A stretch of DNA of 52,470 nt from an uncultured Candidatus Saccharibacteria bacterium (GCA_964601125.1 CAZRKB010000002.1:1-52470); one strand, 5' to 3'. Shown: positions 1 to 46,691, counted from the first letter of the stretch. Numbers and translations: made by a program. The notes: generated by a model from the letters alone, not told the origin.

Positions 1-61
1 CAGTTGGTAGAGCACCCCCATGGTAAGGGGGAGGTCATCGGTTCAATCCCGATCAACGGCT
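1..61 (+). tRNA. tRNA-Thr (anticodon GGT), 5' part cut by the window edge. CCA is encoded at 62-64.
   Basis: Anticodon stem ccccc/ggggg (15-19/27-31) with loop atGGTaa. T arm atcgg-ttcaatc-ccgat (37-53). Acceptor 3' strand caacggc (54-60), discriminator t61. Confidence 0.85.
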
Positions 62-1550
62 CCAAAATCAAACTTAGCGGTTTTTCAGAGGCGGAAATTC
101 GCGCGGCGCGGAGCGCCGCGTATGGAGAAATGGCGTTTCCGCGCGCTTCGCGCGCGTGGAGCGAGAGGTTCAATCCGAAAATTTTTTGGAGGAAGGATTT
201 TTTTAAAAGGAGGTCTTCCGATTCCGCGATTTTTCCGAGTGTCAAAGCGTCTGCAATCCAGTTGCGGACAGGTTCAACCCAAGCGGCAGGGGCTCGTTCA
301 AGACGGACGATATTTTCTTCAATCGTCCGGCGCTCGCTTGCAAGAGCGCGACGGCGTGACAAGTAATCCTCACGCTCCAAATCTTCAGCGACATATAAAT
401 CTGTCAGGCGCGATATTTTGCGAGAAATATCTTCGCACTTGTCACGCAGTTCTTGGACGGCTCCTGCCGCTGTTTGAGAGGCGCTGGCCGCCTCTTTTTC
501 AAGCAATGCGGAAAATGGAGAAATCCATTCTTGCGGCATAAAATATTCTGAAAGAAGCGTCGAGAGTTGCGAGTCCAAAAACTCGCTTCGCACCGGCGCT
601 TCTTTGCATTTGGCCGCTTTGTTTTTGCGAGTACAACGATAATATGTGTAGTGGTGAACGTTGCCATTTTTCTGATGTTTCTCTTTTACTTCAGCTGTAA
701 TACCCATACCGCAAAAACCACAGCGCAAAAGTCCGCAATACGGCGCCGGATCGGTTTTGATGGAAACTGGCCGGCCGCGTCCGCGCAAAACCGCATTGGC
801 TTTATCAAAAAGAGATTTTGAAATTAGAGGAGTGTGCGTACCTTCGTAAATTTCTCCGGCATATCGGAATTGACCGTAGTAAAATGGATTTTGCAAAATG
901 AAAGAGATGCGCGAAATATGAACTCGATGATTTCTTTTGGACATCACACCCGAATTTTCAAGAAAAAGTGTGAGCTGATCCAGCGTAAATTTTCCGCTCG
1001 AATATTTTTCAAATATTTCGCGCACAAGCGCGGCGTTTTTCTTGTGAACTTTTATAGTTTTTGTACTCGGATCATTTATATATCCAATTGGCGCAAGTGC
1101 TGGATAAATTCCTTGCCGCGCTTTTTGTCTTAAACCGCGAGCAGTATTTGCAGAAAGTTGGCGGATATATTCATTTGCCATGCCGAGCTCAACGGACATC
1201 ATGAGAACATTGTCATTGGGATAATGCGAGCGGTCGTGCGTTTGAATATGTCTGATTACATTTTGCTGGAGAAGCCATTGTATTTGTCCGCCGTCTACCG
1301 GATTTCTCGCCAAGCGATCAATTTTCCAACAGATAATTCCTTGTGCTTCGCCGCGCTGAATACGAGAAACCATTTCATTAAATATGGGACGGCCAGGCTG
1401 CTTGGCACTTTTCTTTTCAACGAACTCCTCAACAATTTCCAACTCGTTTCTGTGTGCGAGCACGCGAAGTTCGGCAAGCTGAGCTTCAATACTCAAAACT
1501 TGCTTGTCTTCAACATCAGTGCTTTTGCGAGCGTATAAAAAATATTTCAT
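1..1550 (-). CDS. Large serine recombinase (resolvase catalytic domain + recombinase domain + zinc beta-ribbon + coiled coil). The 3' end is open at the window edge. Not in the supplied ORF track.
   Basis: Manual minus-strand translation from ATG (1550-1548) gives MKYFLYARKSTDVEDKQVLSIEAQLAEL...GIICWKIDRLARNPVDG...LSANTARGLRQKARQG...YCGLLRCGFCGMGITAEVKEKHQKNGNVHHYTYYRCTRKNKAAKC... The frame has no stop down to position 1 (516 codons). The YxRxST catalytic-Ser motif and the CxxC..C zinc ribbon are typical of large serine recombinases. Confidence 0.9.
   Translation of the reverse strand, partial: MKYFLYARKSTDVEDKQVLSIEAQLAELRVLAHRNELEIVEEFVEKKSAKQPGRPIFNEMVSRIQRGEAQGIICWKIDRLARNPVDGGQIQWLLQQNVIRHIQTHDRSHYPNDNVLMMSVELGMANEYIRQLSANTARGLRQKARQGIYPALAPIGYINDPSTKTIKVHKKNAALVREIFEKYSSGKFTLDQLTLFLENSGVMSKRNHRVHISRISFILQNPFYYGQFRYAGEIYEGTHTPLISKSLFDKANAVLRGRGRPVSIKTDPAPYCGLLRCGFCGMGITAEVKEKHQKNGNVHHYTYYRCTRKNKAAKCKEAPVRSEFLDSQLSTLLSEYFMPQEWISPFSALLEKEAASASQTAAGAVQELRDKCEDISRKISRLTDLYVAEDLEREDYLSRRRALASERRTIEENIVRLERAPAAWVEPVRNWIADALTLGKIAESEDLLLKKSFLQKIFGLNLSLHAREARGNAISPYAALRAARISASEKPLSLILEPLIGIEPMTSPLPWGCSTN
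60..165. repeat. IR-A copy 1: 106-bp perfect inverted repeat, partner 1793-1898. Degenerate similarity continues to about 222.
   Basis: Base-by-base comparison shows 60-165 equals the reverse complement of 1793-1898. It covers the last acceptor base, discriminator and CCA of tRNA-Thr(GGT) and the 3' coding end of the recombinase. Confidence 0.95.
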
Positions 1551-1790
1551 ATAACTTAAATGGCCATCCTTGGTGCACTCAACCCAACAAGTTGGATTGT
1601 CCAAAGACGGCCATTAAAAAACTTGTTGGAAAGTTGAGTGCGCATCCATTATACATCAAAAGAAAATTTTGTTGCAAATATTTTTAGGGAGTTTTTGTGT
1701 GTGCGCACGGGTGGGCGGGGCAAACACACATAAATTTGCAGACCTCCTAAAAATCCTTCCTCCAAAAATTTCGGATCTGTATTTTCCTGA

Positions 1791-1943
1791 ACCTCGCTCC
1801 ACGCGCGCGAAGCGCGCGGAAACGCCATTTCTCCATACGCGGCGCTCCGCGCCGCGCGAATTTCCGCCTCTGAAAAACCGCTAAGTTTGATTTTGGAGTC
1901 TCTATTGTACTCCGCTCGAACCTATTTTTCCACTGAAATCTAG
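1791..1943 (+). pseudogene. Orphan 3' fragment of a serine recombinase gene (about 50 codons, ...HAREARGNAISPYAALRAARISASEKPLSLILESLLYSARTYFSTEI*).
   Basis: In the recombinase frame the IR-A copy 2 reading is preceded by an in-frame TGA (1788-1790) and ends at TAG 1941-1943. There is no N-terminal part upstream. Confidence 0.5.
1793..1898. repeat. IR-A copy 2 (inverted).
   Basis: Reverse complement is identical to 60-165. It abuts IR-B and overlaps it by GAG (1896-1898). Confidence 0.95.
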
Positions 1944-2130
1944 CGCACGCTCCGCGCGCGTGGTGGCTTTGTATTCTTGCGTACGCTCGACGCAAAGTGC
2001 TAACTCTGAAAGAAGAATTCCGCTTAGCTCGCTCCGCTCGCTCTGCCCCTCGCTTCCGTCCGCCCGAATTCCTCTCTTTCTTTTTGGCGGGGTGTTATGA
2101 AATGGATGAGGAGGCGGATGGAAGCGAGGG
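1896..2130. repeat. IR-B copy 1: 235-bp perfect inverted repeat, partner 12658-12892.
   Basis: Checked base by base against the reverse complement of 12658-12892. GC-rich. The inner end folds as an 18-bp hairpin (2047-2064 / 2113-2130). Confidence 0.95.
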
Positions 2131-2212
2131 TGATTTTTTGGGTGTTTGACAAATAAAAACGTGGTACAATAATTGTACAAACAAATGAATAGAGAATTGA
2201 AGAGTAAATTTG

Positions 2213-2232
2213 GAGAGAGAGAGAGAGAGAGA
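2213..2232. repeat. (GA)10 dinucleotide microsatellite.
   Basis: Direct reading: gagagagagagagagagaga. Confidence 0.95.
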
Positions 2233-2274
2233 GTAGAAGAGACCCTCCGAATTTTTGTATTAGACAAAGAAGCA

Positions 2275-2301
2275 AAAAGCACTGTTTTTGACAGTGCTTT
2301 T
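2275..2301. terminator. Symmetric hairpin flanked by A-run and T-run (aaaagcactgt-ttttg-acagtgctttt). Terminator-like in both directions.
   Basis: 11-bp perfect stem with a 5-nt loop and T/A tracts on both sides. Confidence 0.5.
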
Positions 2302-2321
2302 TGCGATTAAATTTTAATACC

Positions 2322-2627
2322 ATGGATACATTTTATATATCAATAATACTTGCAGGGTTTGGTGGAGGGGCAGTTAGAAATTTAGTCGGATTTGCCAAAC
2401 AATTTTCATTCACTAAACCAGTCTTTGATCTCAAATATTTTCTTATGACTATGCTCATTTCCGGAGCAGTCGGACTCATTGCTGCTATTGTCACCAAAGA
2501 GTTGGACATCAGTATTTTAGGAATTTCAGGCTTCACTCCAGCCATCGCCTTTTTGGTTGGTTACGCTGGAGGAGATTTGCTGGATAATCTTTACAAAATT
2601 ATTTTGAGAAAACCAGCTACTACCTAA
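2322..2627 (+). CDS. Small hypothetical membrane protein (about 3 TM, 101 aa).
   Basis: ORF 2301..2627. The first ATG is at 2322. Hydrophobic segments include ISIILAGFGGG, LMTMLISGAVGLIAAIV and AIAFLVGYAGG. Confidence 0.55.
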   Translation: MDTFYISIILAGFGGGAVRNLVGFAKQFSFTKPVFDLKYFLMTMLISGAVGLIAAIVTKELDISILGISGFTPAIAFLVGYAGGDLLDNLYKIILRKPATT

Positions 2628-2631
2628 CTTT

Positions 2632-5600
2632 ATGCCTTACTTTTTTAACAAAAAATTATTTCTGATTGCGATTGTAATTTGGGTTGGATTTGGGTTTTCA
2701 ATAAAAGCAAATGCAGCGACGGGGGATATCACTGCTGTTCGTATTGTATCTGGTGCGGAAGCTAGCCCGTGCAGTGCGGGTACTAATTGTAACGGTTGGG
2801 TAGCGGAAATTGATATTACCGGATTAAATACTGGAGGGACATATAATCTTGGTCTGGGTGCAAACAATAATCCATCAACTGCAAAAATTGTTTTTACTGT
2901 TACGTCCCCAGGATATGACACAAGTGGCAATGCGACGACAATAGCACGGACAATTTATGGTACGAAACAACTTCGTAAACCATATCCAAACCAGGCGACA
3001 ATGGACGAGGTTGAATCCGGTGGAACTCTTACCGTCCGTGTAGCACTTTCTGATTTTGTTTATTCTGGAGACTCGAGTATTACAGTAAATATCGGCTCTG
3101 GATTTTATACAAACGGAACAGCAAACAATGCTGTGACAGGATTGGCTGTTACAAATAATTCAACTTTAGGATACCCAAAAACCATAGGCCGCTGGGCGTG
3201 GCCCGGATATGAGAGGGTAACCGGTGACTTCTTACTCGAATCCACTGTATTTAACCACTTTGCCCGCAATGGCAAACCTGTGGCCGCAGTAAAATACACT
3301 TGCTCTGATCAACACTCAAATACCGTCACCCAAACCGTTAACAATATGACGGTTTCCACGAGAACTGGCGATGCTAACAAAGTTTTGGTTTACGCGGCAA
3401 CTATGCCTGTTTCAACTTTAACGCAAGGTGACATTATCACCTGCAACTTTACTGCTTATCCTTGGGTTGGTGACTCAACAGCTCTTGTTAATTCCGATTT
3501 AGTTGCTAATGGAGGTGATGGTATAGCTCAACCTAGCGAAGCGCTCGGACCTATTTATGAAGTCTTGGACAAATCAGGAACATACCCCAAAGGCTTTGCG
3601 GTCGTGGATGCAACGAACGGACAAGCGTCGGCGGCAGCCACCTGGGTGTACTCCTCACAGTCTGCTGCGGAATCGGCTTATGCGGGAGGTAACACGAACT
3701 CCTACAGGACCATCGGCTATGCCCTGCAGGCTCTCAAGGCATACAACAATGCTGATGCTACTTTTTCACATAATGATCCCGGAGGAGGAACTGTTCTTTT
3801 ACCGGAAGGATCTTATACATGGTCAAGTACCGGGCGATATGCCGACTCGGGCACGCAAAATATGTGGGTGACAGTCACAAAACTATCAACAGCATCTCGT
3901 GCAAATACAATCTTAGCTGCGGGTGGAGCGAGTAACTGGAATACGCAGAAAATTAAATTTACTGATTTAAATCTCGCTGGTTCTGCATCGGGCGTTCTTT
4001 CCAGCCGCACAGCATCAGACGTCTTGTGGCTACACAACAATACAATTAATTACACTGCTGACGGTGCTGTATATTCTTGGTTATTGGCATATGCAACTCA
4101 AAATGCGGTTACAAAGATAGGCCAAGGTTTTGATGTTTATGGAGGAGTTAAGGGCGCATATGCGTTAATACGTGGAAATACTGCGACAGCGCTTATTCCA
4201 TCTAGTGTCTATGCTATCTTGGGTAACACAAAAATTAAGCCTTCTCGGTTTTGTAATGATGCAACGTGTTACGGAGGAATGCAAACGTCAGAAAATTCAA
4301 TTATCGCATTCAATACCGTATATGGGCTAAGCTCAAGCATGTTGACAGGTCAACCAGCTAATACACAAACGCTTACGTGGGGAATAGCTATAGTACAAAA
4401 TGTATTTGAAAAAATAACCACGACTGACAACATTATGGGTATAGCCGCTGATAGTAGCACATCCAATCCAGCGAATAATGTAATTTTGTGGTACAACGAT
4501 TTTGTAGGTGAACGATTGAATATGGCGTATAACGATTTCACTGGACCAGGCACTCCGTTGATTCGAACCAATTGGTCATTCAAGTATAATTTGCTTGATA
4601 GATATTCCAATGTTTCTGATGTTGATAGCCATAATGGTAATCTTCCTGATGGAACTAGGATTGGTAATTGGCCGGTTAGGTATGGGGCAGGAACGGCCGG
4701 AAACATAATTGGAAGTTCACCGTTTTATGGAGAATTCCTTGGACTTTACACTTTAAATACGACGTTACCTGGCACGCTCGGAGGCTATGATTTTCATTAC
4801 ACAAATAATGCATCTTATACTGGCACAGCAGCGGGTAACGGAGATTATCATCCTACAGACTTATCACCATCTTTGAATCTTGTTTCGTCCGGATCTGCCT
4901 TGCTTCCATATGATATTGAAGGAACTGCCCGCAAAAACGACGGCACGGGCGCAGCCGGCGCATATGAATATGTCGCTGCTGGCGATACAACTTCTCCAAC
5001 AGTTTCCGATGGTACTATCACCACTTCATCTGTAACTTCAACTTCTCTCACCCTCTCTTGGACCAAAGCGACCGACGACACTTCCGCTCAAAACGCTCTA
5101 GTCTATCGAGTTTATAGATCATCTTCAAACAACATTGATTCCGTTGCTAATATTTATGCCAACGGCACTGCAGTTAACGCTTCCACAACCGATATAGCAA
5201 CTCTGGATGTTTCTTCTCTAGATCCTGCTACCACATATTACTTCAACATTGTCGTTGCTGACGAAGCTGGAAATTCTGCAGTATATACCACCAAATCACA
5301 AGTTACTCTCCAATCAGATTTAAGCGCTCCAACAGTGAACACATACAGCCCGACTGACGGTGCTTCTGATGTGGCTATAAGTTCAAACCTTGTTTTAACT
5401 TTCAACGAAAATGTGGCCAAAAGTACAGGCAACATTTATATCAAATTAACTAGCAATGATTCTACCGCTCAAACTATTGACGTTACTGACGCCACAGTCT
5501 CTGTGAGTAACGATACAGTCACTATCAATCCGCCTTCCAATTTGGATTACAGTACCGGATATTATGTCACTATAGACAACGGCGCTCTGGTAGATACCGC

Positions 5601-6684
5601 AACACCGACCCCCAACGCTTATGTTGGAATTTCAAACAGCACAACCTGGAATTTCACAACAGCATCCGCTCCATCATCCGTTAAAGCTATAACTTCTTTT
5701 GCTCTCAACGGCTTAACTCCAGCGGTTACAGGCACAATTAACGAAGGAGCTAAAACCGTCACCTTAACTGTTCCATACGGCACTTCTCTAACCAATCTCG
5801 TCCCCACTATTGTCTACACAGGCTCTTCCATTGATCCAGCTTCAGGTGCAGCTCACACGTTCACAGACGGAGTAGCCGAAACTTATACTGTCACTGCCGA
5901 AGATGCGACAACTCAAGCGTATCAAGTTACGGTTAATGTGACTCCTGCAAGCTCGGCAACAACCATCACTTCTTTTGATTTCGCATCCCCGGCTGTTACT
6001 GGCACAGTGGACAATACCGCTCACACCGTAGCTCTAACCGTCCCATACGGCACTGATGTTACTTATCTTACTCCGACCATTGTTTTGGCAACAGGAGCAA
6101 CTATTTCTCCAGATACTGGAGTAGCAACAGATTTCACTTCACCGGTTACTTACACAGTTACCGCCCAAGACGGAACAACGGAGCAAATATATACCGTGAC
6201 TGTCACTTCCGAAGCTGCTCCAGTCACTCCGTCAAACGGCCCCGTTTCTTCGGGTGGGGGCGGAGGGGGTCGCCGAAATATAATTACAACATCTATTCCA
6301 ACCGAAACTACTAATTACAGATTCCTAAACAATCTCTCATACGGATCGGAAGGAAATGATGTAACCGAACTTCAAAAGTTTTTGGTGTCGCAAGGATTTT
6401 TGACCTCAGACAACATCACCGGAGCATTCCGTGGAGAAACTCAAAAAGCTCTGCAAGCTTTCCAAAAAGCAAATGGTATTGTCACTTCCGGAACTCCGCA
6501 AACTACAGGATTTGGCAACTTCGGGCCGACAACTCGAGCAAAAGTTAATGCGATACTTGCCGGCTCAATCCCTTCGACAAGCTCAGGGCAAGCGGTCGCA
6601 GATCTGCAAGCTACTCTTCTTTCTTTGCAAAAACAACTGGTGACTCTGTTGACTCAACTGATACAGAAATTACAAGCTAACTAG
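2632..6684 (+). CDS. Giant secreted/surface protein (1350 aa). Contents: signal peptide, probable beta-helix region, FN3, Ig-like repeats, one C-terminal peptidoglycan-binding (PG_binding_1-like) domain and a terminal coiled coil.
   Basis: N-terminal signal FLIAIVIWVGFGFSIKANA. FN3-like LTLSWTKATDD...VYRVYRS. Duplicated ITSF..VTGT....TV.LTVPYGT modules. LSYGSEGNDVTELQKFLVSQGFL...ALQAFQKANGI matches the PG-binding motif. Confidence 0.8.
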   Translation: MPYFFNKKLFLIAIVIWVGFGFSIKANAATGDITAVRIVSGAEASPCSAGTNCNGWVAEIDITGLNTGGTYNLGLGANNNPSTAKIVFTVTSPGYDTSGNATTIARTIYGTKQLRKPYPNQATMDEVESGGTLTVRVALSDFVYSGDSSITVNIGSGFYTNGTANNAVTGLAVTNNSTLGYPKTIGRWAWPGYERVTGDFLLESTVFNHFARNGKPVAAVKYTCSDQHSNTVTQTVNNMTVSTRTGDANKVLVYAATMPVSTLTQGDIITCNFTAYPWVGDSTALVNSDLVANGGDGIAQPSEALGPIYEVLDKSGTYPKGFAVVDATNGQASAAATWVYSSQSAAESAYAGGNTNSYRTIGYALQALKAYNNADATFSHNDPGGGTVLLPEGSYTWSSTGRYADSGTQNMWVTVTKLSTASRANTILAAGGASNWNTQKIKFTDLNLAGSASGVLSSRTASDVLWLHNNTINYTADGAVYSWLLAYATQNAVTKIGQGFDVYGGVKGAYALIRGNTATALIPSSVYAILGNTKIKPSRFCNDATCYGGMQTSENSIIAFNTVYGLSSSMLTGQPANTQTLTWGIAIVQNVFEKITTTDNIMGIAADSSTSNPANNVILWYNDFVGERLNMAYNDFTGPGTPLIRTNWSFKYNLLDRYSNVSDVDSHNGNLPDGTRIGNWPVRYGAGTAGNIIGSSPFYGEFLGLYTLNTTLPGTLGGYDFHYTNNASYTGTAAGNGDYHPTDLSPSLNLVSSGSALLPYDIEGTARKNDGTGAAGAYEYVAAGDTTSPTVSDGTITTSSVTSTSLTLSWTKATDDTSAQNALVYRVYRSSSNNIDSVANIYANGTAVNASTTDIATLDVSSLDPATTYYFNIVVADEAGNSAVYTTKSQVTLQSDLSAPTVNTYSPTDGASDVAISSNLVLTFNENVAKSTGNIYIKLTSNDSTAQTIDVTDATVSVSNDTVTINPPSNLDYSTGYYVTIDNGALVDTATPTPNAYVGISNSTTWNFTTASAPSSVKAITSFALNGLTPAVTGTINEGAKTVTLTVPYGTSLTNLVPTIVYTGSSIDPASGAAHTFTDGVAETYTVTAEDATTQAYQVTVNVTPASSATTITSFDFASPAVTGTVDNTAHTVALTVPYGTDVTYLTPTIVLATGATISPDTGVATDFTSPVTYTVTAQDGTTEQIYTVTVTSEAAPVTPSNGPVSSGGGGGGRRNIITTSIPTETTNYRFLNNLSYGSEGNDVTELQKFLVSQGFLTSDNITGAFRGETQKALQAFQKANGIVTSGTPQTTGFGNFGPTTRAKVNAILAGSIPSTSSGQAVADLQATLLSLQKQLVTLLTQLIQKLQAN

Positions 6685-6689
6685 AAAAT

Positions 6690-9600
6690 ATGGAAATATT
6701 GCAACAAATCCTTTCTACTTTAACTGCTCTGGTTATGGCTCTTTCCGCCCAGATTGTTTCTCTGCCTCCAATCACACAATTGGCTCAAGTCTCCGCTCCG
6801 AGTTCGGGACTTGTCGGCTACTGGAATTTTGATGAAGGATCGGGAACAGTCGCAAACGATTCAAGTGGAAATGGAAATACCGGAACAATTAACGGAGCAA
6901 CTTGGACAACAGGAAAGGTGGGGAGTGGGGCTTTGAGTTTTGATGGAACAAGCAGTTATGTTTCTCTCGGCTCGTCGGCATCTCTCTCAGGTATAACTTA
7001 TCCGTATTCAATTTCTTTGTGGTTTAAGAGTTCCACCAACCAGTCTAAAATTTTATTTAGCTTTGACACAAATGATGCGAGCAGTGATCAGGCGATTCTT
7101 CTAGCCAATTCTTCCGGGGGCAATAATCAGTGGATTATTGCTGGCAACAAATATGCAAACGTTTATCCAACTATAAATAATCTTTCTGATGGACAATGGC
7201 ATAATGTCGTCGTTGAAAGAGATTCATCGAATAATGCTTTAATTTATGTTGATGGGAATAATTTTTCTACCAATAATACTTCTGCTTACTCTGTAAGCAA
7301 TATGGTAATCGGCGGGAGAGGTGCTGGAACATATCCGTTTAACGGATCAATTGATGAAATTCGTATTTATAACCGTACTCTTTCTGCATCTGAAGTCTCA
7401 AATATTTATAACGAGGGTGGAAGTTCAGTAATGCCTCCGGCACCAGAACCTGAGCCAACTCCGGCCCCTACCCCAACCCCGACACCCATAAACGGATCTT
7501 GCGGTTCTTCTGTTAACACTTGTACAACAGGAACTTTATCCGACACTGCCGATACTTCCACTAATTATCTCTGGATTTGCCAAGGTAGCAATGGGGGCAC
7601 AAATGTTTCTTGTTCTCTCCCGATTTCTATCACGCCGCCTCCTTCAAACGGAACTTATACGGTAAAAAAGGACGGTACTGGCAATTTCACTACTATCCAA
7701 GCTTGCGCCGATGCTGTAACCGCGGGAGGAACCTGTCTAGTCTATGCTGGTACTTACAATGAACGCGTATCTACTAAATCTGGCGGCACAAGTGACAGTA
7801 ATCGTATATTTTTCAAAACCCAAGGCACGGTGACTATGCAAGGTTTTGATATAAAAAATCCTTACATAACAATAGAAGGTTTTGATATGACCGGATACTC
7901 GGTAAATTACACGGGTTATGTTGATGTCTGGCAAAATGGAGATTACGTCAATGTTTTAAACAACACAATTCGTGATGTTGATGGGGGAGCAAAGGTAAAT
8001 GGAGTTAAATTTGAGCGTGTCAGTGGCGACTCCGCAAATAACGGTATTGTCCGCGGAAACACCATGACTCACTTAAACTCTCAATATTTTTCTCTTCATG
8101 GTTCAAACCACCTGATTGAACAAAACAGAATGACCGAAGCTCGTCAGTGGGATCCGTTTATGGTTTTTGGCACCAATCATATTATCCGTCATAACATTTT
8201 TTTGAATGCTGGCACTGCCGGCGGCGGTAATCATCCAGATTATTTCCAGACTTGGGGTGCCAGTGGAGAGCCCGCTCAGAATATTTTATTTGAAGACAAC
8301 TGGATGCAAGATCTGCCGGAACAGCTCTGCCAGCTCAATTCTTCTGTTGATGGAGTGGGGGCTTTGGTTACCAACGTCAGAGATTTTACCTTCCGCCGGA
8401 ATGTGGTCGTAAACGTACCGGCAAATTGTAACGTAGATATTCCGGGCACCAGGTGGGAGAATAATACTTTTTCCCGGATGTCCTATAACATGACCGGCTT
8501 TATAATGGGAGGTTCGTTAACCAGAGGCGATGGCTCTTCGGCAGTATTTCGCAATAATGTGTTTTTGGAAGGCGGAAGCAATCCAACTGCCAGCAATAGT
8601 TCCTCTGGTTTTTATAGCGTAGACGGCTTCTTATTCACTCGCGAAGTCATTGCCCAATATGTCACAGGGGAAGGCTTTGCCTCCTGCGCCAGTCCCGGTT
8701 GCCCCATAGCCAATGGTATCACAAACGATATGATTGCTAGCGGATATATTGACGGTGCCTATAACGGGCACATTCTTCCCGCAGCACGGGCGCTTACGAG
8801 CGGAGATGCCATGAATTTAAATGCTTCATACGCAGCATACAAACCGGCGCTTTGGACAAAGCTTCAAGAATCTATTACTTACGATAATACTTTAAAGTCT
8901 ACTTTCTCCGCTGATTACAATTATGTAGCCGGAGCAACGTCCTCAGGTTATCCGGCTAAGAAAAGCAGCGGCTGCGTAGCCGGAGCCACATACACCAGCG
9001 GGAATTTCTGCGAACCGCATGGTATTAATGGCGGTGATCCAAAATTGCAAAATGTAAGCAACCCTATCGGACCAGATGGTATACCCTTTACTTCAGATGA
9101 TGGATTGAGGCCTTTATCTGGGTCACCCCTATGTGGCACTGGAGAAGGAGGGGCTAGTATAGGAGCCTATTCTTGCTCGTCTTCTTCGCTGGGAGCTCCA
9201 ACCATTTCCAATTTTTATGCAACCCCGTCATCAATCACTTCGGGCAATTCTACTATATTGTCTTGGTCAGTGTCAGGTGCAAGTTCGATTTCTATAGATA
9301 ACAATGTTGGTAGTGTCACCAATCTAACATCAAAAACAGTTTCTCCGAACGTAACTACTACATACACTATTACAGCGACAAATAGTGCTGGATCGGTTAC
9401 GAGATCGATTACTGTATCAGTTTCTTCTGCTTCAATAAGTGATTTAGTTTTGAGACTAAATTTCGAAGGATACACTCCTTCTTCCGGCATAGTTTCTGAT
9501 AAGTCGGGTACTGGCAATGATGGCGCTTGCAATTATAGTTTAGGACAGTGCCCTGTAATTGGTACTGGTCCAGATAATAGTACTGCTGCCAGATTTTTTG

Positions 9601-11324
9601 GTGCTTATCCAGACGCGGCAAATGATGGTAACTATGTCTCTGTAAGCAAAACCAGCAGTCTCTCCAACTTGACGAGCGGAACCGTTTCAGTTTGGGCACG
9701 CTATGCCAACATATCTCCAGACAGAGTAGAATTTATTTTAGACAGCTACCAAAAGACTGGAGAAAATCCTGACCATAGCGATATTGGCACTCCTGGTACT
9801 TGGTATATCGGCAGAAATTATTATCAAAACAACAGCTTGTGGGCTTTCAACAATTCAGGTAGCCGCGTCCAACTCATCTCTTTTCCGGACTCTTCGGTAT
9901 ATACCCAACAACAGTCAGGCACTGCCGGCTGGCATCAGTATGCCTTTACGTGGGACGGCACCAACGTAAAAGGATACTATGATGGCGCTTTAATTAGTAC
10001 AACTCCGCAAACAAATTTCTCGTATTTCACTCTAGGAAATTATCTGGCCCTTGGCGCAAGTGGTCACAACTCGCTACCAGAAACCGGTACTCAAAAATAT
10101 CCAAATCATGGATTTATAAATGGTTATCTAGACGAAATCCGTATTTACAATCGAGCTCTTTCGTCAGCTGAAATTTCTTCCCTATACTCTGCTCCAGCAA
10201 ATAATACTGCGCCAACAACTCAACCGATTACTCCTGAACCAACTCTGCCTGTAATCTCCAACCTCGTCGGCTCTAACACCACATCTAACTCAACCAAAAT
10301 TTCTTGGGATACTAATATTGCAACAAACGGCCAGGTCTTTTACGGCAAAACTTCAAGTTACGGACTCTCTTCTGTTTTAGTAGACAATTCGCCCAAGACA
10401 ACTTCACATTCTGTCACTCTCTCCAATCTTTCTGCGGCAACAGCATATCATTTCAAAGTCACTTCTATCGATGCTTCAAGCAATAGCATTTCTTCATCAG
10501 ATTTTACTTTCACTACTCAAGCCAGTGCTCCACAATCCGTATCATCAAATACTACCGCTTCTGGCGCTGGGAGTAGTGGCTCTTCTTCAAATTCAATAAC
10601 CACCCCTACCGCTACCACCCCTGCTCCAATTGTCTACATTCCTCCTGCACTTCCAGCCGCTGTTTCCACACAAATCTCCGGACCAACTCTTACCCGCAAC
10701 CTCCTGCCTTCAAATAAAGGCGAAGAAGTCAAAATCCTACAGAATTTCTTAATTTCTCAAGGACTACTCTCAGCTGATTCTAACACCGGATACTTTGGTC
10801 CAGCTACCCAAAAAGCGGTGCAAGATTTCCAAAAAGCTCGAGGTTTAGTCTCTTCAGGAGATTTTTGGACAACCGGTTATGGAATGGTTGGTCCAGCTAC
10901 CAGAGCAATGATCAACAGTATAACTGGATCTGCAACCGTTAATACTTCAACAACCAATACGACTGCAACTGTTCCCCTCGTTCGCAATCTTTCCCGTGGT
11001 TCCGAAGGATCCGATGTAACTATTTTGCAAAATTTCTTGATCTCACAGGGTTACTTAGCTCCAGGCAATGCTATCGGTTATTTCGGCCCTTTAACCGAAA
11101 CGGCAATCAAAAAATTCCAAGCTAGCCAGAACATTGTTTCCGCAGGTACTCCTCAAACCACTGGCTACGGAAATGTTGGGTCAATGACTAGAGCTAAAAT
11201 CAATGCTTTTCTTGGTGCAAACAATCTCCCAATCGGGACAAGTAATACTACTCTTCAAGCTCAAATACAGGCTTTACAGCAGCAAGTGCAAGAACTGATG
11301 CTTAAGTTGCAGAAAGCGCAATAA
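6690..11324 (+). CDS. Giant surface protein (1544 aa). Contents: two LamG/concanavalin-like domains, a right-handed beta-helix, Ig-like and FN3 domains, two PG-binding domains and a terminal coiled coil.
   Basis: GLVGYWNFDEGSG...IDEIRIYNRTLSASEV and LDEIRIYNRALSSAEI (Laminin_G_3 signatures). PbH1-like repeats NNTIRD/RGNTMT/EQNRMT/RHNIFL. Two EGxxVxxLQNFLISQG..GYFGP motifs. Confidence 0.85.
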   Translation: MEILQQILSTLTALVMALSAQIVSLPPITQLAQVSAPSSGLVGYWNFDEGSGTVANDSSGNGNTGTINGATWTTGKVGSGALSFDGTSSYVSLGSSASLSGITYPYSISLWFKSSTNQSKILFSFDTNDASSDQAILLANSSGGNNQWIIAGNKYANVYPTINNLSDGQWHNVVVERDSSNNALIYVDGNNFSTNNTSAYSVSNMVIGGRGAGTYPFNGSIDEIRIYNRTLSASEVSNIYNEGGSSVMPPAPEPEPTPAPTPTPTPINGSCGSSVNTCTTGTLSDTADTSTNYLWICQGSNGGTNVSCSLPISITPPPSNGTYTVKKDGTGNFTTIQACADAVTAGGTCLVYAGTYNERVSTKSGGTSDSNRIFFKTQGTVTMQGFDIKNPYITIEGFDMTGYSVNYTGYVDVWQNGDYVNVLNNTIRDVDGGAKVNGVKFERVSGDSANNGIVRGNTMTHLNSQYFSLHGSNHLIEQNRMTEARQWDPFMVFGTNHIIRHNIFLNAGTAGGGNHPDYFQTWGASGEPAQNILFEDNWMQDLPEQLCQLNSSVDGVGALVTNVRDFTFRRNVVVNVPANCNVDIPGTRWENNTFSRMSYNMTGFIMGGSLTRGDGSSAVFRNNVFLEGGSNPTASNSSSGFYSVDGFLFTREVIAQYVTGEGFASCASPGCPIANGITNDMIASGYIDGAYNGHILPAARALTSGDAMNLNASYAAYKPALWTKLQESITYDNTLKSTFSADYNYVAGATSSGYPAKKSSGCVAGATYTSGNFCEPHGINGGDPKLQNVSNPIGPDGIPFTSDDGLRPLSGSPLCGTGEGGASIGAYSCSSSSLGAPTISNFYATPSSITSGNSTILSWSVSGASSISIDNNVGSVTNLTSKTVSPNVTTTYTITATNSAGSVTRSITVSVSSASISDLVLRLNFEGYTPSSGIVSDKSGTGNDGACNYSLGQCPVIGTGPDNSTAARFFGAYPDAANDGNYVSVSKTSSLSNLTSGTVSVWARYANISPDRVEFILDSYQKTGENPDHSDIGTPGTWYIGRNYYQNNSLWAFNNSGSRVQLISFPDSSVYTQQQSGTAGWHQYAFTWDGTNVKGYYDGALISTTPQTNFSYFTLGNYLALGASGHNSLPETGTQKYPNHGFINGYLDEIRIYNRALSSAEISSLYSAPANNTAPTTQPITPEPTLPVISNLVGSNTTSNSTKISWDTNIATNGQVFYGKTSSYGLSSVLVDNSPKTTSHSVTLSNLSAATAYHFKVTSIDASSNSISSSDFTFTTQASAPQSVSSNTTASGAGSSGSSSNSITTPTATTPAPIVYIPPALPAAVSTQISGPTLTRNLLPSNKGEEVKILQNFLISQGLLSADSNTGYFGPATQKAVQDFQKARGLVSSGDFWTTGYGMVGPATRAMINSITGSATVNTSTTNTTATVPLVRNLSRGSEGSDVTILQNFLISQGYLAPGNAIGYFGPLTETAIKKFQASQNIVSAGTPQTTGYGNVGSMTRAKINAFLGANNLPIGTSNTTLQAQIQALQQQVQELMLKLQKAQ

Positions 11325-11342
11325 CAAGCAGCATCTAAAAAT

Positions 11343-12059
11343 ATGCCAGACGAAAATACACAACCCGCTCCTGAACCAGTCCAAACCGAATCAACCCCGA
11401 CACAACCGGAAACTCCAATTTCCGAACCGAACCCCGTAAAGCTCGATTCTCTCGCCACGGGGCAAGACCCTGCTTCAGTGAGCTCGCAAGGGCCCATGGA
11501 ACCTGCCCCTGTTCAGCCAGCACCCTCTGACACTTCCGAAATGCCCCCTGGTCCAGTAGAAGCCCCATCAAGCCCCGAAGAAGCCACTCCAGTCAAAGAT
11601 GCTAATTCCGCAAATGAGCCGTTCCCCGTAAAAGACGAGGTGCCCTCGTCTCACGGGGCAAGCGAACCAGCTCCTGCCCCTGAGCCGTTAGAAAAGCCTG
11701 GGATTACGATTGAAAGACACGGAACAGACACGACAATAACAGAAGATATGCAGCCAAAATCCGAAACGGCTCAGTTGCCACCAAATGAGCCGATCGATCT
11801 AGCGGAAGAAATAAAGACAAAACAAAGAGAAGAAAATCTAAAACTTGCCAACGAAACCAGACAAGAAAAGAAACGAGAGAAGATAGATAAAATTTTGGAA
11901 ATGTTTTCTGAGCAAACAGAAATTACAAACGACGAAGTAGAAAAACTCCTTCATGTCTCTGACGCAACCGCGACAAGATATTTGGAACAGCTAGAAAAAG
12001 AAAACAAAATCAGACAAGTTGGTAAAACTGGTAAAGGCGTAAAATACGAAAGAATCTAA
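11343..12059 (+). CDS. Protein with a Pro/Glu/Ser-rich disordered N-terminus and a C-terminal winged helix-turn-helix.
   Basis: C-terminus ITNDEVEKLLHVSDATATRYLEQLEKENKIRQVGKTGKGVKYERI resembles a DeoR/MarR-type wHTH. Confidence 0.65.
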   Translation: MPDENTQPAPEPVQTESTPTQPETPISEPNPVKLDSLATGQDPASVSSQGPMEPAPVQPAPSDTSEMPPGPVEAPSSPEEATPVKDANSANEPFPVKDEVPSSHGASEPAPAPEPLEKPGITIERHGTDTTITEDMQPKSETAQLPPNEPIDLAEEIKTKQREENLKLANETRQEKKREKIDKILEMFSEQTEITNDEVEKLLHVSDATATRYLEQLEKENKIRQVGKTGKGVKYERI

Positions 12060-12089
12060 TTTTGAATTTGATTTTTTGTTTTTCTTTTT

Positions 12090-12560
12090 TGGGAGCTCTC
12101 CGTACACGCGAATGGGTCGGGTGGGTCAAGTGTACATGTCTGAGTCCTCGGGCATTTCCGCTATGGCAGGATCGGATATGAGCGCCGTCGCCAGCCGAAG
12201 CGATGCGGGAAAAAAGCGAAAGCGACACTGTGAACACAAGAATGAAATGGAGGAGTGGGGTTGTGCGAGGGTGGACTCCGAAGGCACAAACAATGTGTCG
12301 CAAAACTCTACAAAAAGATGAATAAAACAAAGCACTACAAAATCTAAACCATCTCTGCGAGGAGGAGCCCGAAGCTGGGGAGAGGAACCTTCCTCTCCCC
12401 AAAAGGAGCGGTGCCCGAGCCAGCGCCGAGCACGGCGCGGTGGCGAGGAAAAGCACCGCACGAAGCAATCTAGGCGCGAGTAGCCATAGCGGAAATGCCC
12501 GAGGACGGATGTCCGAGGGTGGAGCTTCCAGCCTGCCAAAAATATGAGTATGCCAGAGGC
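12090..12560. ncRNA. Candidate large structured RNA of unknown class. The region is GC-rich and non-coding-looking, and lies inside the element next to IR-B copy 2.
   Basis: 24-bp long-range helix 12144-12167 / 12483-12506. Hairpins 12377-12400 (10 bp) and 12419-12444 (10 bp with a 2-nt bulge), enclosed by 12408-12414 / 12453-12459. Helix 12102-12107 / 12130-12135. A hand count of 12401-12460 gives 42/60 G+C. Only Arg/Ser/Pro-rich, mutually overlapping ORFs are present. Confidence 0.4.
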
Positions 12561-12657
12561 ACCATTTCTTTTTTCTTCTGTCTTTTCCCAAACGGCTCAT
12601 TTCCTGCCATTTGAGCCGTTTGGAATTCCGCTTGCTTCTTCCTTAGAAGAATCCTGC

Positions 12658-12892
12658 CCCTCGCTTCCATCCGCCTCCTCATCCATTTCATAACACCCCG
12701 CCAAAAAGAAAGAGAGGAATTCGGGCGGACGGAAGCGAGGGGCAGAGCGAGCGGAGCGAGCTAAGCGGAATTCTTCTTTCAGAGTTAGCACTTTGCGTCG
12801 AGCGTACGCAAGAATACAAAGCCACCACGCGCGCGGAGCGTGCGCTAGATTTCAGTGGAAAAATAGGTTCGAGCGGAGTACAATAGAGACTC
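12658..12892. repeat. IR-B copy 2 (inverted). It ends 14 nt upstream of tRNA-Thr(CGT).
   Basis: Reverse complement is identical to 1896-2130. Confidence 0.95.
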
Positions 12893-12906
12893 AAGAAAGA
12901 AATTGT

Positions 12907-12979
12907 GCCGATGTAGCTCAATTGGTAGAGCAATGGTATCGTAAACCATAGGTTGTCGGTTCAATCCCGACCATCGGCT
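12907..12979 (+). tRNA. tRNA-Thr (anticodon CGT).
   Basis: Cloverleaf by hand: acceptor gccgatg/catcggc, D arm gctc-aattggta-gagc, anticodon stem atggt/accat with loop atCGTaa, T arm gtcgg-ttcaatc-ccgac, discriminator t. Confidence 0.9.
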
Positions 12980-12980
12980 C

Positions 12981-46570: not shown

Positions 46571-46691
46571 TATTTAACAAATGGCTGTAAATAAGGTTTT
46601 TTTCAAAATCCCTCTCTCTCCTTTCCATTGACATTTTCTTAAATTGATGTAGTCTCATTTTAAATGCGGTGATGATTTGGATATCGTTTTT

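Follow-up and report, generated by a model that had tools for sequence, protein, structure and literature searches.

The window analysed here, a stretch of 52,470 nucleotides from an uncultured Candidatus Saccharibacteria bacterium, begins inside a tRNA gene, next to which the 12.8-kb segment 60-12892 carries a recombinase gene, a large cargo and two pairs of inverted repeats (Table 1). Bases 1-61 match positions 13-71 of the Rfam tRNA model (59 positions at the 3' side, 40 bits), and alignment with the complete genes of relatives identified the gene as tRNA-Thr(GGT). On the opposite strand, the recombinase open reading frame has no internal stop, and the outer arm of IR-A sits within its 3' end. 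A preliminary description had recognized a large serine recombinase at this position, which holds, whereas the stop codon of its own does not, as the frame stays open across the P' arm and the core, continues in the tRNA gene as antisense, and so spans the crossover point.

Table 1. Features of the segment and its flanks (positions counted from the first letter of the window).
Feature	Position	Strand	Remarks
tRNA-Thr(GGT), 3' part	1..61	+	Rfam tRNA match; 5' end cut by window start; B half of attachment site
Large serine recombinase ORF, 516 codons	1..1550	-	start at 1550; TGA stop cut by window start
IR-A outer arm (P' arm)	60..202	+	perfect over 60-165, then indel, continues to 202
Core CTC of junction J1	60..62	+	tRNA to P' arm, attL-like
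Promoter-like site, recombinase	1648..1677	-	TTGCAA-18-TATAAT; consensus match only; in unique part of recombinase (R) module
IR-A inner arm (inverted P' arm)	1749..1898	+	perfect over 1793-1898
Core GAG of junction J2	1896..1898	+	inverted P'·P, attP-like, intact, between both modules
IR-B proximal arm (inverted P arm)	1896..2130	+	
Promoter-like site, cargo operon	2146..2173	+	TTGACA-16-AATAAT; consensus match only; just inside cargo (C) module
Variable cargo	2301..11324	+	holin-like membrane protein and two giant surface proteins
Small holin-like membrane protein	2301-2627	+	
Giant surface proteins, two	2632-6684 and 6690-11324	+	Big_5, fn3, DUF5018, LamG, PG_binding_1 domains
238-aa protein	11343..12059	+	C-terminal winged helix; backbone gene
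Conserved structured noncoding element	12138..12545	+	best conserved over 12340-12545
IR-B distal arm (P arm)	12658..12892	+	ends in core CTC 12890-12892 = junction J3 (P to flank, attR-like)
14-nt spacer (B' half), then tRNA-Thr(CGT)	12893..12980	+	tRNA-Thr(CGT) at 12907-12980

The recombinase has the domain set Resolvase, Recombinase and Zn_ribbon_recom. The resolvase catalytic domain (PF00239, E 1.7e-22, residues 4-147), with a YARKST motif near the N-terminus, is followed C-terminally by PF07508 (E 3.7e-15) and PF13408 (E 8.2e-08). The presence of both a catalytic domain with the serine nucleophile and the recombinase/zinc-ribbon domains places the protein in the large serine recombinase family. 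Its best relatives of solved structure are the SPβ integrase (E 2.4e-11, the alignment covering residues 37-411) and the A118 integrase, and its best NCBIfam matches are CcrB and XisF, with scores far below the cut-offs of every named equivalog.

The two pairs of repeats proved to be perfect, as the preliminary description had claimed: IR-A pairs 60-165 with 1793-1898 (106 nt, 100% complementary; 92% for the longer version 60-202/1749-1898, one indel allowed), and IR-B pairs 1896-2130 with 12658-12892 (235 nt, 100%; a repeat call of 245 nt at 98% overruns by 10 nt into the non-homologous flank). No further repeats of this size were found in the first 14 kb, where inverted matches other than these two reach at most 30 nt (80%). 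IR-A and IR-B overlap at J2 by exactly the 3-nt core GAG, and CTC stands at both J1 and J3, so that J2 equals the reverse complement of 12658-12892 plus 63-165; it is thus the exact mirror of the sequence that arises when the right end is joined to the left, as had been predicted for the circular junction. The core is therefore present at all three junctions, and these 3 nt are all that the island ends have in common. As J2 is kept inverted inside the island, the R module is flanked by inverted P' arms and the C module by inverted P arms. There is no dyad symmetry between P and P', and the B' flank is not conserved.

The cargo differs entirely among relatives, which carry proteases, a TraG-like ATPase, restriction-modification or toxin-antitoxin genes at this place. 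The winged-helix C-terminal domain is conserved at the same cargo end in at least 10 related islands, and the protein is a candidate regulator or directionality factor. The noncoding element downstream, likewise part of the backbone, is closed by a perfect 24-bp stem (12144-12167/12483-12506). Pfam scans of the island ORFs found neither replication or partition proteins nor a Flp-type recombinase, and no replication origin was found in the island.

The 3-nt core spans the last acceptor-stem base of the tRNA, the discriminator and the next base. The preliminary description rightly placed an inserted element at the 3' end of tRNA-Thr(GGT), given the adjacent tRNA-Thr genes in relatives and the homologous R+C islands at different tRNA-Thr genes (L017 versus L076); that the element regenerates the tRNA end was overstated, since just the 3-nt core is common and the crossover is located at the extreme tRNA end. 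At three loci (L016, L036 and L076), tRNA-Thr(GGT) and tRNA-Thr(CGT) are separated by 13-40 nt with no insert between them, and the island lies on the other side. Moreover, tRNA-Thr(CGT) lies at most 100 nt away, an empty-type tandem, in 28 of the 115 metagenome contigs with a matching tRNA 3' end. Insert-free pairs are thus present in relatives and metagenomes, whereas sequence searches did not find the exact empty site of the source species.

Comparison of the half-sites placed the motif GGTTC at 16-20 nt from the core in the tRNA, where it belongs to the T-loop, versus 20-24 nt in the P arm, i.e. 4 bp farther. All of 11 P arms have it without change; in the proximal arm of IR-B the strand given here reads GAACC at this distance of 20-24 nt, with GGTTC on the other strand. 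The outer binding motif of the SPβ integrase is shifted by 4-5 bp between the attP (P-type) and attB (B-type) half-sites (PMC11722253), a rule with which the 4-bp offset between the P and tRNA halves agrees. No offset GGTTC-like motif was seen in the P'/B' halves. The core itself is conserved in relatives or co-varies (CAC in L060).

The same order, namely tRNA joined to P', recombinase module, inverted P'·P junction, cargo module and P joined to the flank, was found in many independent Patescibacteria genomes, with recombinases 52-92% identical across the family loci. IR-A surrounds the recombinase in 54 of 79 genome loci, and an antisense tRNA lies at the recombinase 3' end in 47 of the 79, tRNA-Thr accounting for 34 of these 47. 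Within the available sequence, IR-B abuts IR-A at the core in at least 11 loci; profile scans placed P·P' upstream of the recombinase in ~45 loci, many contigs breaking inside IR-B. The arms measure 106-235 nt here and 110-380 nt in relatives. This distribution bears on the earlier worry that the junction at 1896-1898 is an assembly or MDA amplification chimera. Both repeats are perfect, IR-B (235 nt) exceeds the k-mers that assemblers usually employ, a Logan contig that covers the cargo independently ends at the IR-B edge, and the window begins only 59 nt before IR-A. However, the junction geometry is shared by dozens of independent assemblies, including complete chromosomes and loci whose arms are only 80-98% identical, so J2 is not an assembly artefact; a chimera is very unlikely and the least probable of the readings considered, and the orientation of the 10.5-kb cargo in this contig is given as assembled. 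The mirrored-junction architecture is therefore real and family-wide. Our literature search found no published account of this layout for large serine recombinases, of which the preliminary description had likewise been unaware, and these islands apparently form a large, Patescibacteria-wide and undescribed family.

Natural variants revealed insertion polymorphism exactly at the core. At CTCC, one R unit (99.8% identical) adjoins tRNA-Thr(CGT) in L081, and in L080, L082 and L083 its neighbour is a P arm; L093 and L095 differ by a like exchange. Near-identical recombinase modules from different metagenomes can thus have either a tRNA or a P arm as partner, with the join at one and the same nucleotide. 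Islands also occur in tandem and in chains (L004, L080), and some R units lie without their usual cargo neighbour between two tRNAs (L095) or between two different P arms (L080). Such R units, together with the inverted repeats that bound each module, would suit two transposons that lie next to each other, each independent and with its own terminal inverted repeats: an IS-like recombinase element (60-1898) and a non-autonomous cargo element (1896-12892). Nevertheless, the two modules always share the 3-nt core and the same order relative to the tRNA, they travel together between tRNA genes, the backbone genes are divided between them, and a segment between inverted sites is not excisable by a serine recombinase, which leaves this explanation strongly disfavoured. 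The duplicated arms are not essential for mobility, since a 3.4-kb island of a related lineage (L093) is bounded by plain attL/attR ends and has no J2.

Inversion across IR-A and IR-B, another proposal of the preliminary description, does occur, as both modules are found flipped. Two metagenomes (L080 and L082) carry a cargo module that is 100% identical but oppositely oriented, and the cargo of L034 is flipped as well. For the recombinase module, the flipped form occurs in L081 and, among 105 homologue C-termini, in ~7, whose tails read into the P arm. Yet ~93% of recombinase modules and ~95% of cargo modules have the canonical orientation, a strong bias which argues that inversion is rare, neither a frequent switch nor a routine activity. 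A programmed switch for phase or antigenic variation, with the recombinase as a Hin/Gin-like invertase, would account for the recombinase gene inside an invertible segment, as in hin, for the surface proteins in the present cargo and for the inverted cargo of relatives. The preliminary description had suggested that inversion across IR-B would flip the giant surface-protein operon; however, each module has a promoter-like site of its own, that of the cargo lying inside the invertible segment, so a flip should not toggle expression. In view of this, of the wholly different cargo of relatives, of the orientation bias and of a protein that at 516 aa is not a small invertase, a switch is improbable.

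The breakpoints of the L080/L082 cargo inversion can be placed no more finely than within the outer 125 identical nt and the core, so this inversion is equally well accounted for by RecA-type recombination. Host homologous recombination might likewise produce all inversions and homogenise the arms, if the recombinase only integrates, J2 is no substrate, and the arms serve transcriptional insulation or DNA/RNA structure. The orientation bias and the promoter-like sites within the modules are consistent with this, as are the GC hairpins in both P and P' arms, which show compensatory changes and of which two, with GNA/TTC loops, lie within the outer arm of IR-A. On the other hand, J2-type junctions are swapped for tRNA junctions exactly at the core, which indicates that P·P' sites react, and insulation needs neither identical copies nor abutment at a common core in every lineage. 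We therefore consider a purely integrative recombinase unlikely.

The arms evolve in concert: within a locus their first 80-100 nt are 95-98% identical, with a sharp boundary where the identity stops, and the same positions vary between loci. Such sharp-edged identity would be expected from panhandle repair, if a single-stranded copy of the island folds and J2 pairs with the joined ends into a 338-bp duplex attP, with the recombinase and cargo regions looped out as single strands; what look like two attP copies would on this reading be a single site, present once in each of its strands. The geometry fits exactly, mini-hairpins of the GCGAAGC type are found on both strands, and bacteria of the CPR are generally thought to depend on DNA uptake. 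If true, a large serine recombinase would gain a CTX-phage-like route onto incoming single-stranded DNA, whether taken up or transferred, and the concerted evolution of the arms would be explained. Serine recombinases, however, cut both strands of a duplex, and if such a stem recombined with the chromosome, breaks capped by hairpins would remain; within the window, neither a relaxase nor Rep nor any other single-strand machinery was found. This reading is decidedly improbable.

Among known systems, the large serine integrases (SPβ SprA, A118/LI, Bxb1, φC31 and CcrAB of SCCmec) are closest, with the same domain set, attL/attR-like ends sharing just a short core and, in SPβ, the same 4-bp offset between P- and B-type motifs. 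The island differs in targeting tRNA 3' ends, in its intact inverted attP-like site, in arms of 100-340 nt that evolve in concert, and in an ORF that crosses the crossover point; moreover, no directionality factor was identified in it, the winged-helix protein being just a candidate, and no relatives were found in IMG/VR viral contigs. The invertases Hin/hix, Gin/gix and PinQ also show natural inversion variants, and hin also lies within an inverted-site segment. However, these proteins have ~190 aa and a C-terminal helix-turn-helix instead of recombinase and zinc-ribbon domains, and their sites have 26 bp, compared to repeats of 106-235 nt here; the island is in addition an insertion at a tRNA with promoter-like sites inside its segments, and its inversion should not reconnect genes to a fixed promoter or coding start.

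Tyrosine recombinases offer more distant parallels. A circle of the island would have two inverted recombination regions of ~338 bp and two flippable arcs, like the yeast 2-micron circle (Flp/FRT); the likeness is geometric only, as Flp is a tyrosine recombinase of a replicating plasmid and the island is integrated in a chromosome. No circular contig of the island was found, and neither a circular junction nor read-level heterogeneity was seen for its source organism, so both the circle with two inverted attP regions, which we infer to be the transfer form, and its 2-micron-like isomerisation are predicted rather than observed; a circular junction would read identical to J2. According to the published account (PMC5495485), homologous segments of no more than 104 bp are enough for the pTN3 integrase of Thermococcales, which, as is proposed for the island, is encoded by the element and rearranges the chromosome of its host between sites linked to tRNA genes. 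SSV-type elements, too, have their attachment site within the integrase ORF. Nevertheless, pTN3 and SSV-type enzymes are archaeal tyrosine recombinases, and the island ORF is not split, a flip of its module altering only the last 14-19 codons. Compared to tRNA islands of tyrosine integrases, whose ends share a direct repeat of tens of nt of the tRNA 3' segment, the island has a serine-type recombinase and 3 nt in common. Engineered recombinase-mediated cassette exchange uses attP/attB pairs, and a cassette between inverted serine-integrase sites is likewise swappable in either orientation. In the island, by contrast, the same P-type arm forms both brackets, and natural exchange may be deduced from module chains only.

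Altogether, we favour as the probable explanation that 60-12892 is an integrated island of a large Patescibacteria-wide family, mobilised by its ~516-aa large serine recombinase at the extreme 3' ends of tRNA genes, mostly tRNA-Thr. Its hybrid ends share only a short core, as in serine-integrase integrative elements, yet it departs from a simple element of this kind, in which attP is destroyed and the sites have ~40-50 bp, since an intact P·P' site stays inside. The recombinase would itself catalyse these exchanges, cutting and joining DNA at the 3-nt core and thereby integrating the island at tRNA ends. J2 would still be a live site, so secondary events may follow, in which further modules are joined into chains, or deletions and inversions involve neighbouring tRNA genes. 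The long arms would recombine with each other often enough to stay identical over ~100-235 nt beside the core, and would seldom leave a module inverted in doing so.

Canonical large serine recombinases act on sites of ~40-50 bp and need a directionality factor for excision, and we know of no biochemistry that requires arms of 100-340 bp. The duplicated arms presumably confer some selective benefit. We propose tentatively, as a possibility that we hold with less confidence than the island itself, that inverted copies of a single half-site arm stand at both ends of every module and so make each junction a full site. If so, one recombinase could dispense with a directionality factor and still carry out the integration, chaining, inversion and swapping of modules.

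The island between the two tRNA-Thr genes (60-12892) is built on two perfect inverted repeats: IR-A, whose P′ arms bracket the recombinase (R) module, and IR-B, whose P arms bracket the cargo (C) module. With one indel allowed, IR-A extends to 60-202 and 1749-1898. The two central arms overlap by exactly GAG at 1896-1898, and the CTC of the outer arms lies at 60-62 and 12890-12892. This 3-nt core is common to three junctions, namely J1 at the left end (tRNA to P′), the internal inverted P′·P junction J2, and J3 at the right end (P to flank). It spans the final base of the tRNA acceptor stem, the discriminator and the base that follows. When the right end is joined to the left end, the product and J2 are exact reverse complements over 235 and 106 nt that have the core in common. 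The repeats and junctions of the preliminary description were thus confirmed by two methods in agreement, a repeat finder and direct base comparison. The repeat finder detected no comparable repeat elsewhere in the first 14 kb, and the window holds only this one island. An Rfam scan (E<0.001) yielded two tRNAs only, the remaining matches being chance hairpin matches to miRNA models over the IR-B hairpin.

Coordinates of the island's repeats, control sites and noncoding features, with the flanking tRNA genes
Feature	Position	Orientation or strand	Description
tRNA 3′ part	1-61		truncated by the window start; tRNA-Thr(GGT) by comparison with relatives
IR-A	60-165 vs 1793-1898	inverted	106 nt, zero mismatches (repeat finder and base-by-base comparison)
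GC-rich mini-hairpins	60-165, 1793-1898, 1896-2000		GNA triloops (GCGGAGC/GCGAAGC type; TTC/TCC on the other strand)
R-module promoter-like site	1677-1648	minus
IR-B	1896-2130 vs 12658-12892	inverted	235 nt, zero mismatches (repeat finder and base-by-base comparison)
Cargo-module promoter-like site	2146-2173	plus
Structured noncoding element	12138-12545		~400 nt; closing stem 12144-12167 / 12483-12506
tRNA-Thr(CGT)	12907-12980

The recombinase consists of Resolvase, Recombinase and zinc-ribbon domains, as in large serine recombinases (LSRs), with the integrases of SPβ and A118 as its closest solved relatives. Its ORF of 516 codons starts at 1550 on the minus strand and runs through IR-A, across the core and into the antisense of the tRNA; it has no stop of its own, and the TGA stop falls in the tRNA D-arm. 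The ORF listing omitted it because no stop lies inside the window; a non-standard genetic code for the apparently absent ORF was rejected, as the ORF merely runs off the window end. The last ~55 codons (1-205, minus strand) consist of arm and hairpin DNA followed by antisense tRNA, and at the alternative junction the protein would end in ...ESLLYSARTYFSTEI before the stop. The ORF is open across the variable arm DNA in essentially all homologues, and the arm hairpins encode the conserved-looking peptide motifs HAREARG and YAALRAAR in the recombinase tail. A conserved box (TTGCCCC.CCCACCCGTGCGCG), which may be an operator, is shared by distant family members; it precedes the promoter-like site of the recombinase gene and is found in the window at 1697-1740 (minus strand) and also in the related loci L004 (21190-21250), L223 (1-35) and L224 (1-45).

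The spacing of a short motif suggests the type of each half-site. GGTTC is invariant in all P arms at 20-24 nt from the core, and the T-loop GGTTC of the tRNA half lies 16-20 nt from it. In LSRs, the motif for the second DNA-binding domain lies 5 bp nearer the centre in attB than in attP, or 4 bp in the case of SPβ integrase (PMC11722253). As the GGTTC offset matches this difference, the tRNA half appears B-type-like and the P arm P-type-like, which would make J1 attL-like, J3 attR-like and J2 attP-like. Inspection by eye revealed no counterpart of the motif in P′ or in the B′ flank beyond J3, which is not conserved, no shifted motif between P′ and B′, and no dyad symmetry between P and P′.

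Relatives of the recombinase number more than 100 cluster representatives (90% identity clusters) at 62% identity or above (range 62-90%). The homologues are nearly all from Patescibacteria and mostly ~516 aa in length, with several copies in some genomes, and their C-termini (...LILEP..GIEP.TS.LP..CSTN) correspond to antisense tRNA. Scanning one genome per species yielded 79 loci, with an IR-A pair around the recombinase in 54 and antisense tRNA at the recombinase 3′ end in 47. The targets among these 47 are tRNA-Thr(GGT) in 18, Thr(CGT) in 10 and Thr(TGT) in six, in addition to a few Asn, Arg, Val, Gly, Phe, Trp, Leu and Gln tRNAs. Where enough upstream sequence was present for assessment, IR-B abuts IR-A at a common 3-nt core in L004, L005, L009, L016, L017, L019, L029, L036, L060, L061 and L076, whose recombinases are 52-82% identical to that of the window and whose arm identities are 78-100%. 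Moreover, in ~45 loci, scans with P-arm and P′-arm profiles located a P·P′ junction on the upstream side of the recombinase. Some two dozen contigs break off no more than 150 nt beyond IR-A and hence inside IR-B, as expected of a repeat at which assemblies break. The mirrored layout in so large a family upholds J2 as a genuine junction rather than an assembly artefact; in some loci the arms are just 80-95% identical and therefore not assembly duplications. Three family copies (L029, L035 and L046) sit at different tRNA genes of one 813-kb contig (JBAZVG010000001.1), and L004 (1374-21548) carries two islands in tandem at neighbouring sites. A viral origin was rejected, as no relatives occur among IMG/VR viral contigs and PHROG matches are weak and confined to holin-like and DNA-binding proteins. 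Full-text literature searches brought up neither an account of this architecture nor one of an LSR island family in Patescibacteria. We class the island as an LSR integrative element with unusual inverted duplicated arms, tRNA targeting, an ORF over the crossover and a noncoding element.

The proposal of a mobile element inserted at the tRNA-Thr end is supported by empty-type sites, movement of units and exchange at the core. The two tRNA-Thr genes lie 13-40 nt apart in L016, L036 and L076, with the island after tRNA-Thr(CGT); in L009 and L014 the island lies between them, the same as in the window. Among 115 metagenome contigs with an identical 23-nt tRNA-Thr(GGT) 3′ end, tRNA-Thr(CGT) is at most 100 nt away in 28, and a few have a P′ arm instead, directly after GGCTC. 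Adjacent tRNA-Thr(GGT) and tRNA-Thr(CGT) genes therefore exist in relatives as expected of an empty site, but the exact site of the window's species, predicted to read ...CAACGGCTCAAGAAAGAAATTGTGCCGATG, was not found: a metagenome scan for the tRNA-Thr(GGT) 3′ end, 8-38 nt and the tRNA-Thr(CGT) 5′ end gave no match, and a wider search using the 23-nt tRNA end recovered 120 contigs, with no contig of the same species among them (best, 38 of 39 upstream bases). In this closest match, L143 (VFSW01056126.1), a 30-nt spacer follows tRNA-Thr(GGT) and leads to GAGTCTCTATT, the first 11 nt of the inverted P arm, with no similarity beyond; it may be a scar or chance.

Homologous islands of recombinase and cargo in L017 and L076, with ~85% nucleotide identity, occupy different tRNA-Thr genes beside the same flanking gene. 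L080 and L081 share the R unit of protein P0034 at 99.8% identity, and the leftward homology ends exactly at CTCC; to its left lies tRNA-Thr(CGT) in L081, and a P arm in L080, L082 and L083. At the level of sequence, such near-identical R units from different samples are the most direct evidence for exchange at the core. A similar exchange, plus inversion of the unit, distinguishes L093 from L095 for another unit. The recombinase unit in L095 (5225-8075) lies between convergent tRNA-Thr(TGT) and tRNA-Thr(CGT) genes, both of which meet a P′ arm at the core, as expected if an internal attP-like site had reacted with a second tRNA gene, deleting or inverting the DNA between. Modules also form chains, and L080 reads P·P′ R1 P′·P C P·P′ R2 P′·tRNA. 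L083 was considered as a circle and rejected, since it is flanked by two different P arms and hence represents a chain. No circular form was found; L222-L224 and L084, whose recombinase tails run into a P arm, start inside the R module and are hence uninformative. The only other assembly of the window's island was a Logan cargo contig, which breaks at the IR-B edge and at a 24-nt inverted repeat; no second assembly resolving the island repeats was found, and the island's 108-aa protein is not on record. Identical cargo is present in the sequencing run SRR31558899.

Inversion of the R and cargo modules, as suggested in the preliminary description, does occur, but inverted variants are rare. L080 and L082 carry the cargo module in opposite orientations, 100% identical over 2574 nt, between flanks that align in the same direction. 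The diagnostic mismatches are confined to the inner 85 nt, and the inversion therefore fits site-specific or homologous recombination. The conserved cargo-end elements are reversed in L034, against the usual orientation in ~18 independent loci. In addition, about seven of 105 complete homologue C-termini run into a P arm (ESLL..ARTYF) rather than a tRNA, and L081 has a flipped R unit adjoining the tRNA. Such inversion might be taken for a phase-variation switch; however, each module contains its own promoter-like site, and flipping would therefore alter only the last 14-19 recombinase codons and the orientation relative to tRNA transcription, which argues against a switch.

Within a locus, the IR-A arms differ by 2-5% in the 80 nt nearest the core and by 9% at 81-100 nt, followed by a fixed indel at ~100-113 nt and, beyond it, a stretch conserved in all loci. 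By contrast, these first 100 nt vary strongly from locus to locus, and identity over the whole arm is 65-88% across loci compared to 87-93% within a locus. The arms are therefore homogenised or renewed, not merely constrained, which could result from repair of core breaks or from host recombination halted by the fixed indel. IR-B of L080 shows a similar pattern, with identity throughout the outer 125 nt and divergence over the inner 85 nt. Both arm types have GC-rich hairpins with GNA loops (or the complementary TTC/TCC) and compensatory substitutions across loci. On either side of the site, these mini-hairpins lie at a distance of ~45-100 nt from the core, well beyond the normal 50-bp serine-integrase site.

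The variable cargo of the window comprises a holin-like protein and two giant surface proteins. Other islands carry proteases, a TraG-like ATPase and restriction-modification genes, among others, and R modules elsewhere also contain AbiEii, AAA_21, DUF3800 or DUF4411/ImmA genes. A (GA)9 run and a perfect 15-bp hairpin (2215-2232, 2272-2304) separate the promoter-like site of the cargo from its first ORF, the hairpin being terminator-like on both strands. Outside the island, a 1331-aa ORF (46677-50672) has two pairs of direct repeats (47406-47514 / 48156-48264, 109 nt, 99%; 49121-49273 / 49371-49522, ~153 nt, 78%), probably repeated domains of another large surface protein.

The far cargo end is conserved. 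A 238-aa protein (11343-12059) has a C-terminal winged-helix domain kept at the same cargo end in at least 10 islands, and the structured noncoding element sits between its gene and the distal P arm. The element has a folding z-score of -7 to -8 on either strand, covarying hairpins and a highly conserved block (...TAGGCGCGAGTAGCCATAGCGGAAATGCCCGAGG.GGATG.CCGAGGG). It is present in 26 related loci, always beside the P arm at the far cargo end, and has no Rfam match; an RNA, an origin and a binding platform are all conceivable. In the implied circular map, the winged-helix gene, the noncoding element and the recombinase would flank the joined ends, and J2 would lie amid the variable genes. A related 3.4-kb island between tRNA-Thr(GGT) and tRNA-Thr(CGT) (L093 4992-8458; also L092, L097 and L098) has plain attL/attR-like ends and the noncoding element and lacks J2; its P-to-flank junction is 1 nt from the tRNA-Thr(CGT) 5′ end. 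Immediately upstream of its recombinase are a 104-aa gene and an HTH_17/MerR-like gene, the latter a candidate excision factor.

As the best-supported mechanism, we propose that the LSR island would integrate at tRNA 3′ ends via exchange at the 3-nt core and would retain a live inverted attP-like site, J2, after integration. This mechanism would account for insertion polymorphism, module chains and inversions; units between two tRNAs are likewise expected, because J2 would react with a neighbouring tRNA site. The preliminary comparison with the yeast 2-micron circle holds for the geometry, and the likeness is geometric only. A more radical reading, in which a single strand of the island folds and J2 pairs with the joined ends into one duplex attP, seems to us very improbable beside integration with a retained J2.

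LSRs owe their value to short, simple sites that are consumed on integration. The present family departs from this picture in being very widespread in Patescibacteria and having a complete mirror-image second site, and further in its tRNA 3′ end targets, the ORF threaded through the crossover and the conserved structured noncoding element. It offers ready-made, co-varying pairs of site and enzyme for engineering, and may explain recurrent contig breaks beside tRNA-Thr genes in assemblies of these bacteria. If the recombinase acts on all three junctions, the family would be a natural system to integrate, chain and re-orient gene cassettes, including surface proteins, defence genes and restriction systems, in hosts with tiny genomes and few known mobile elements.
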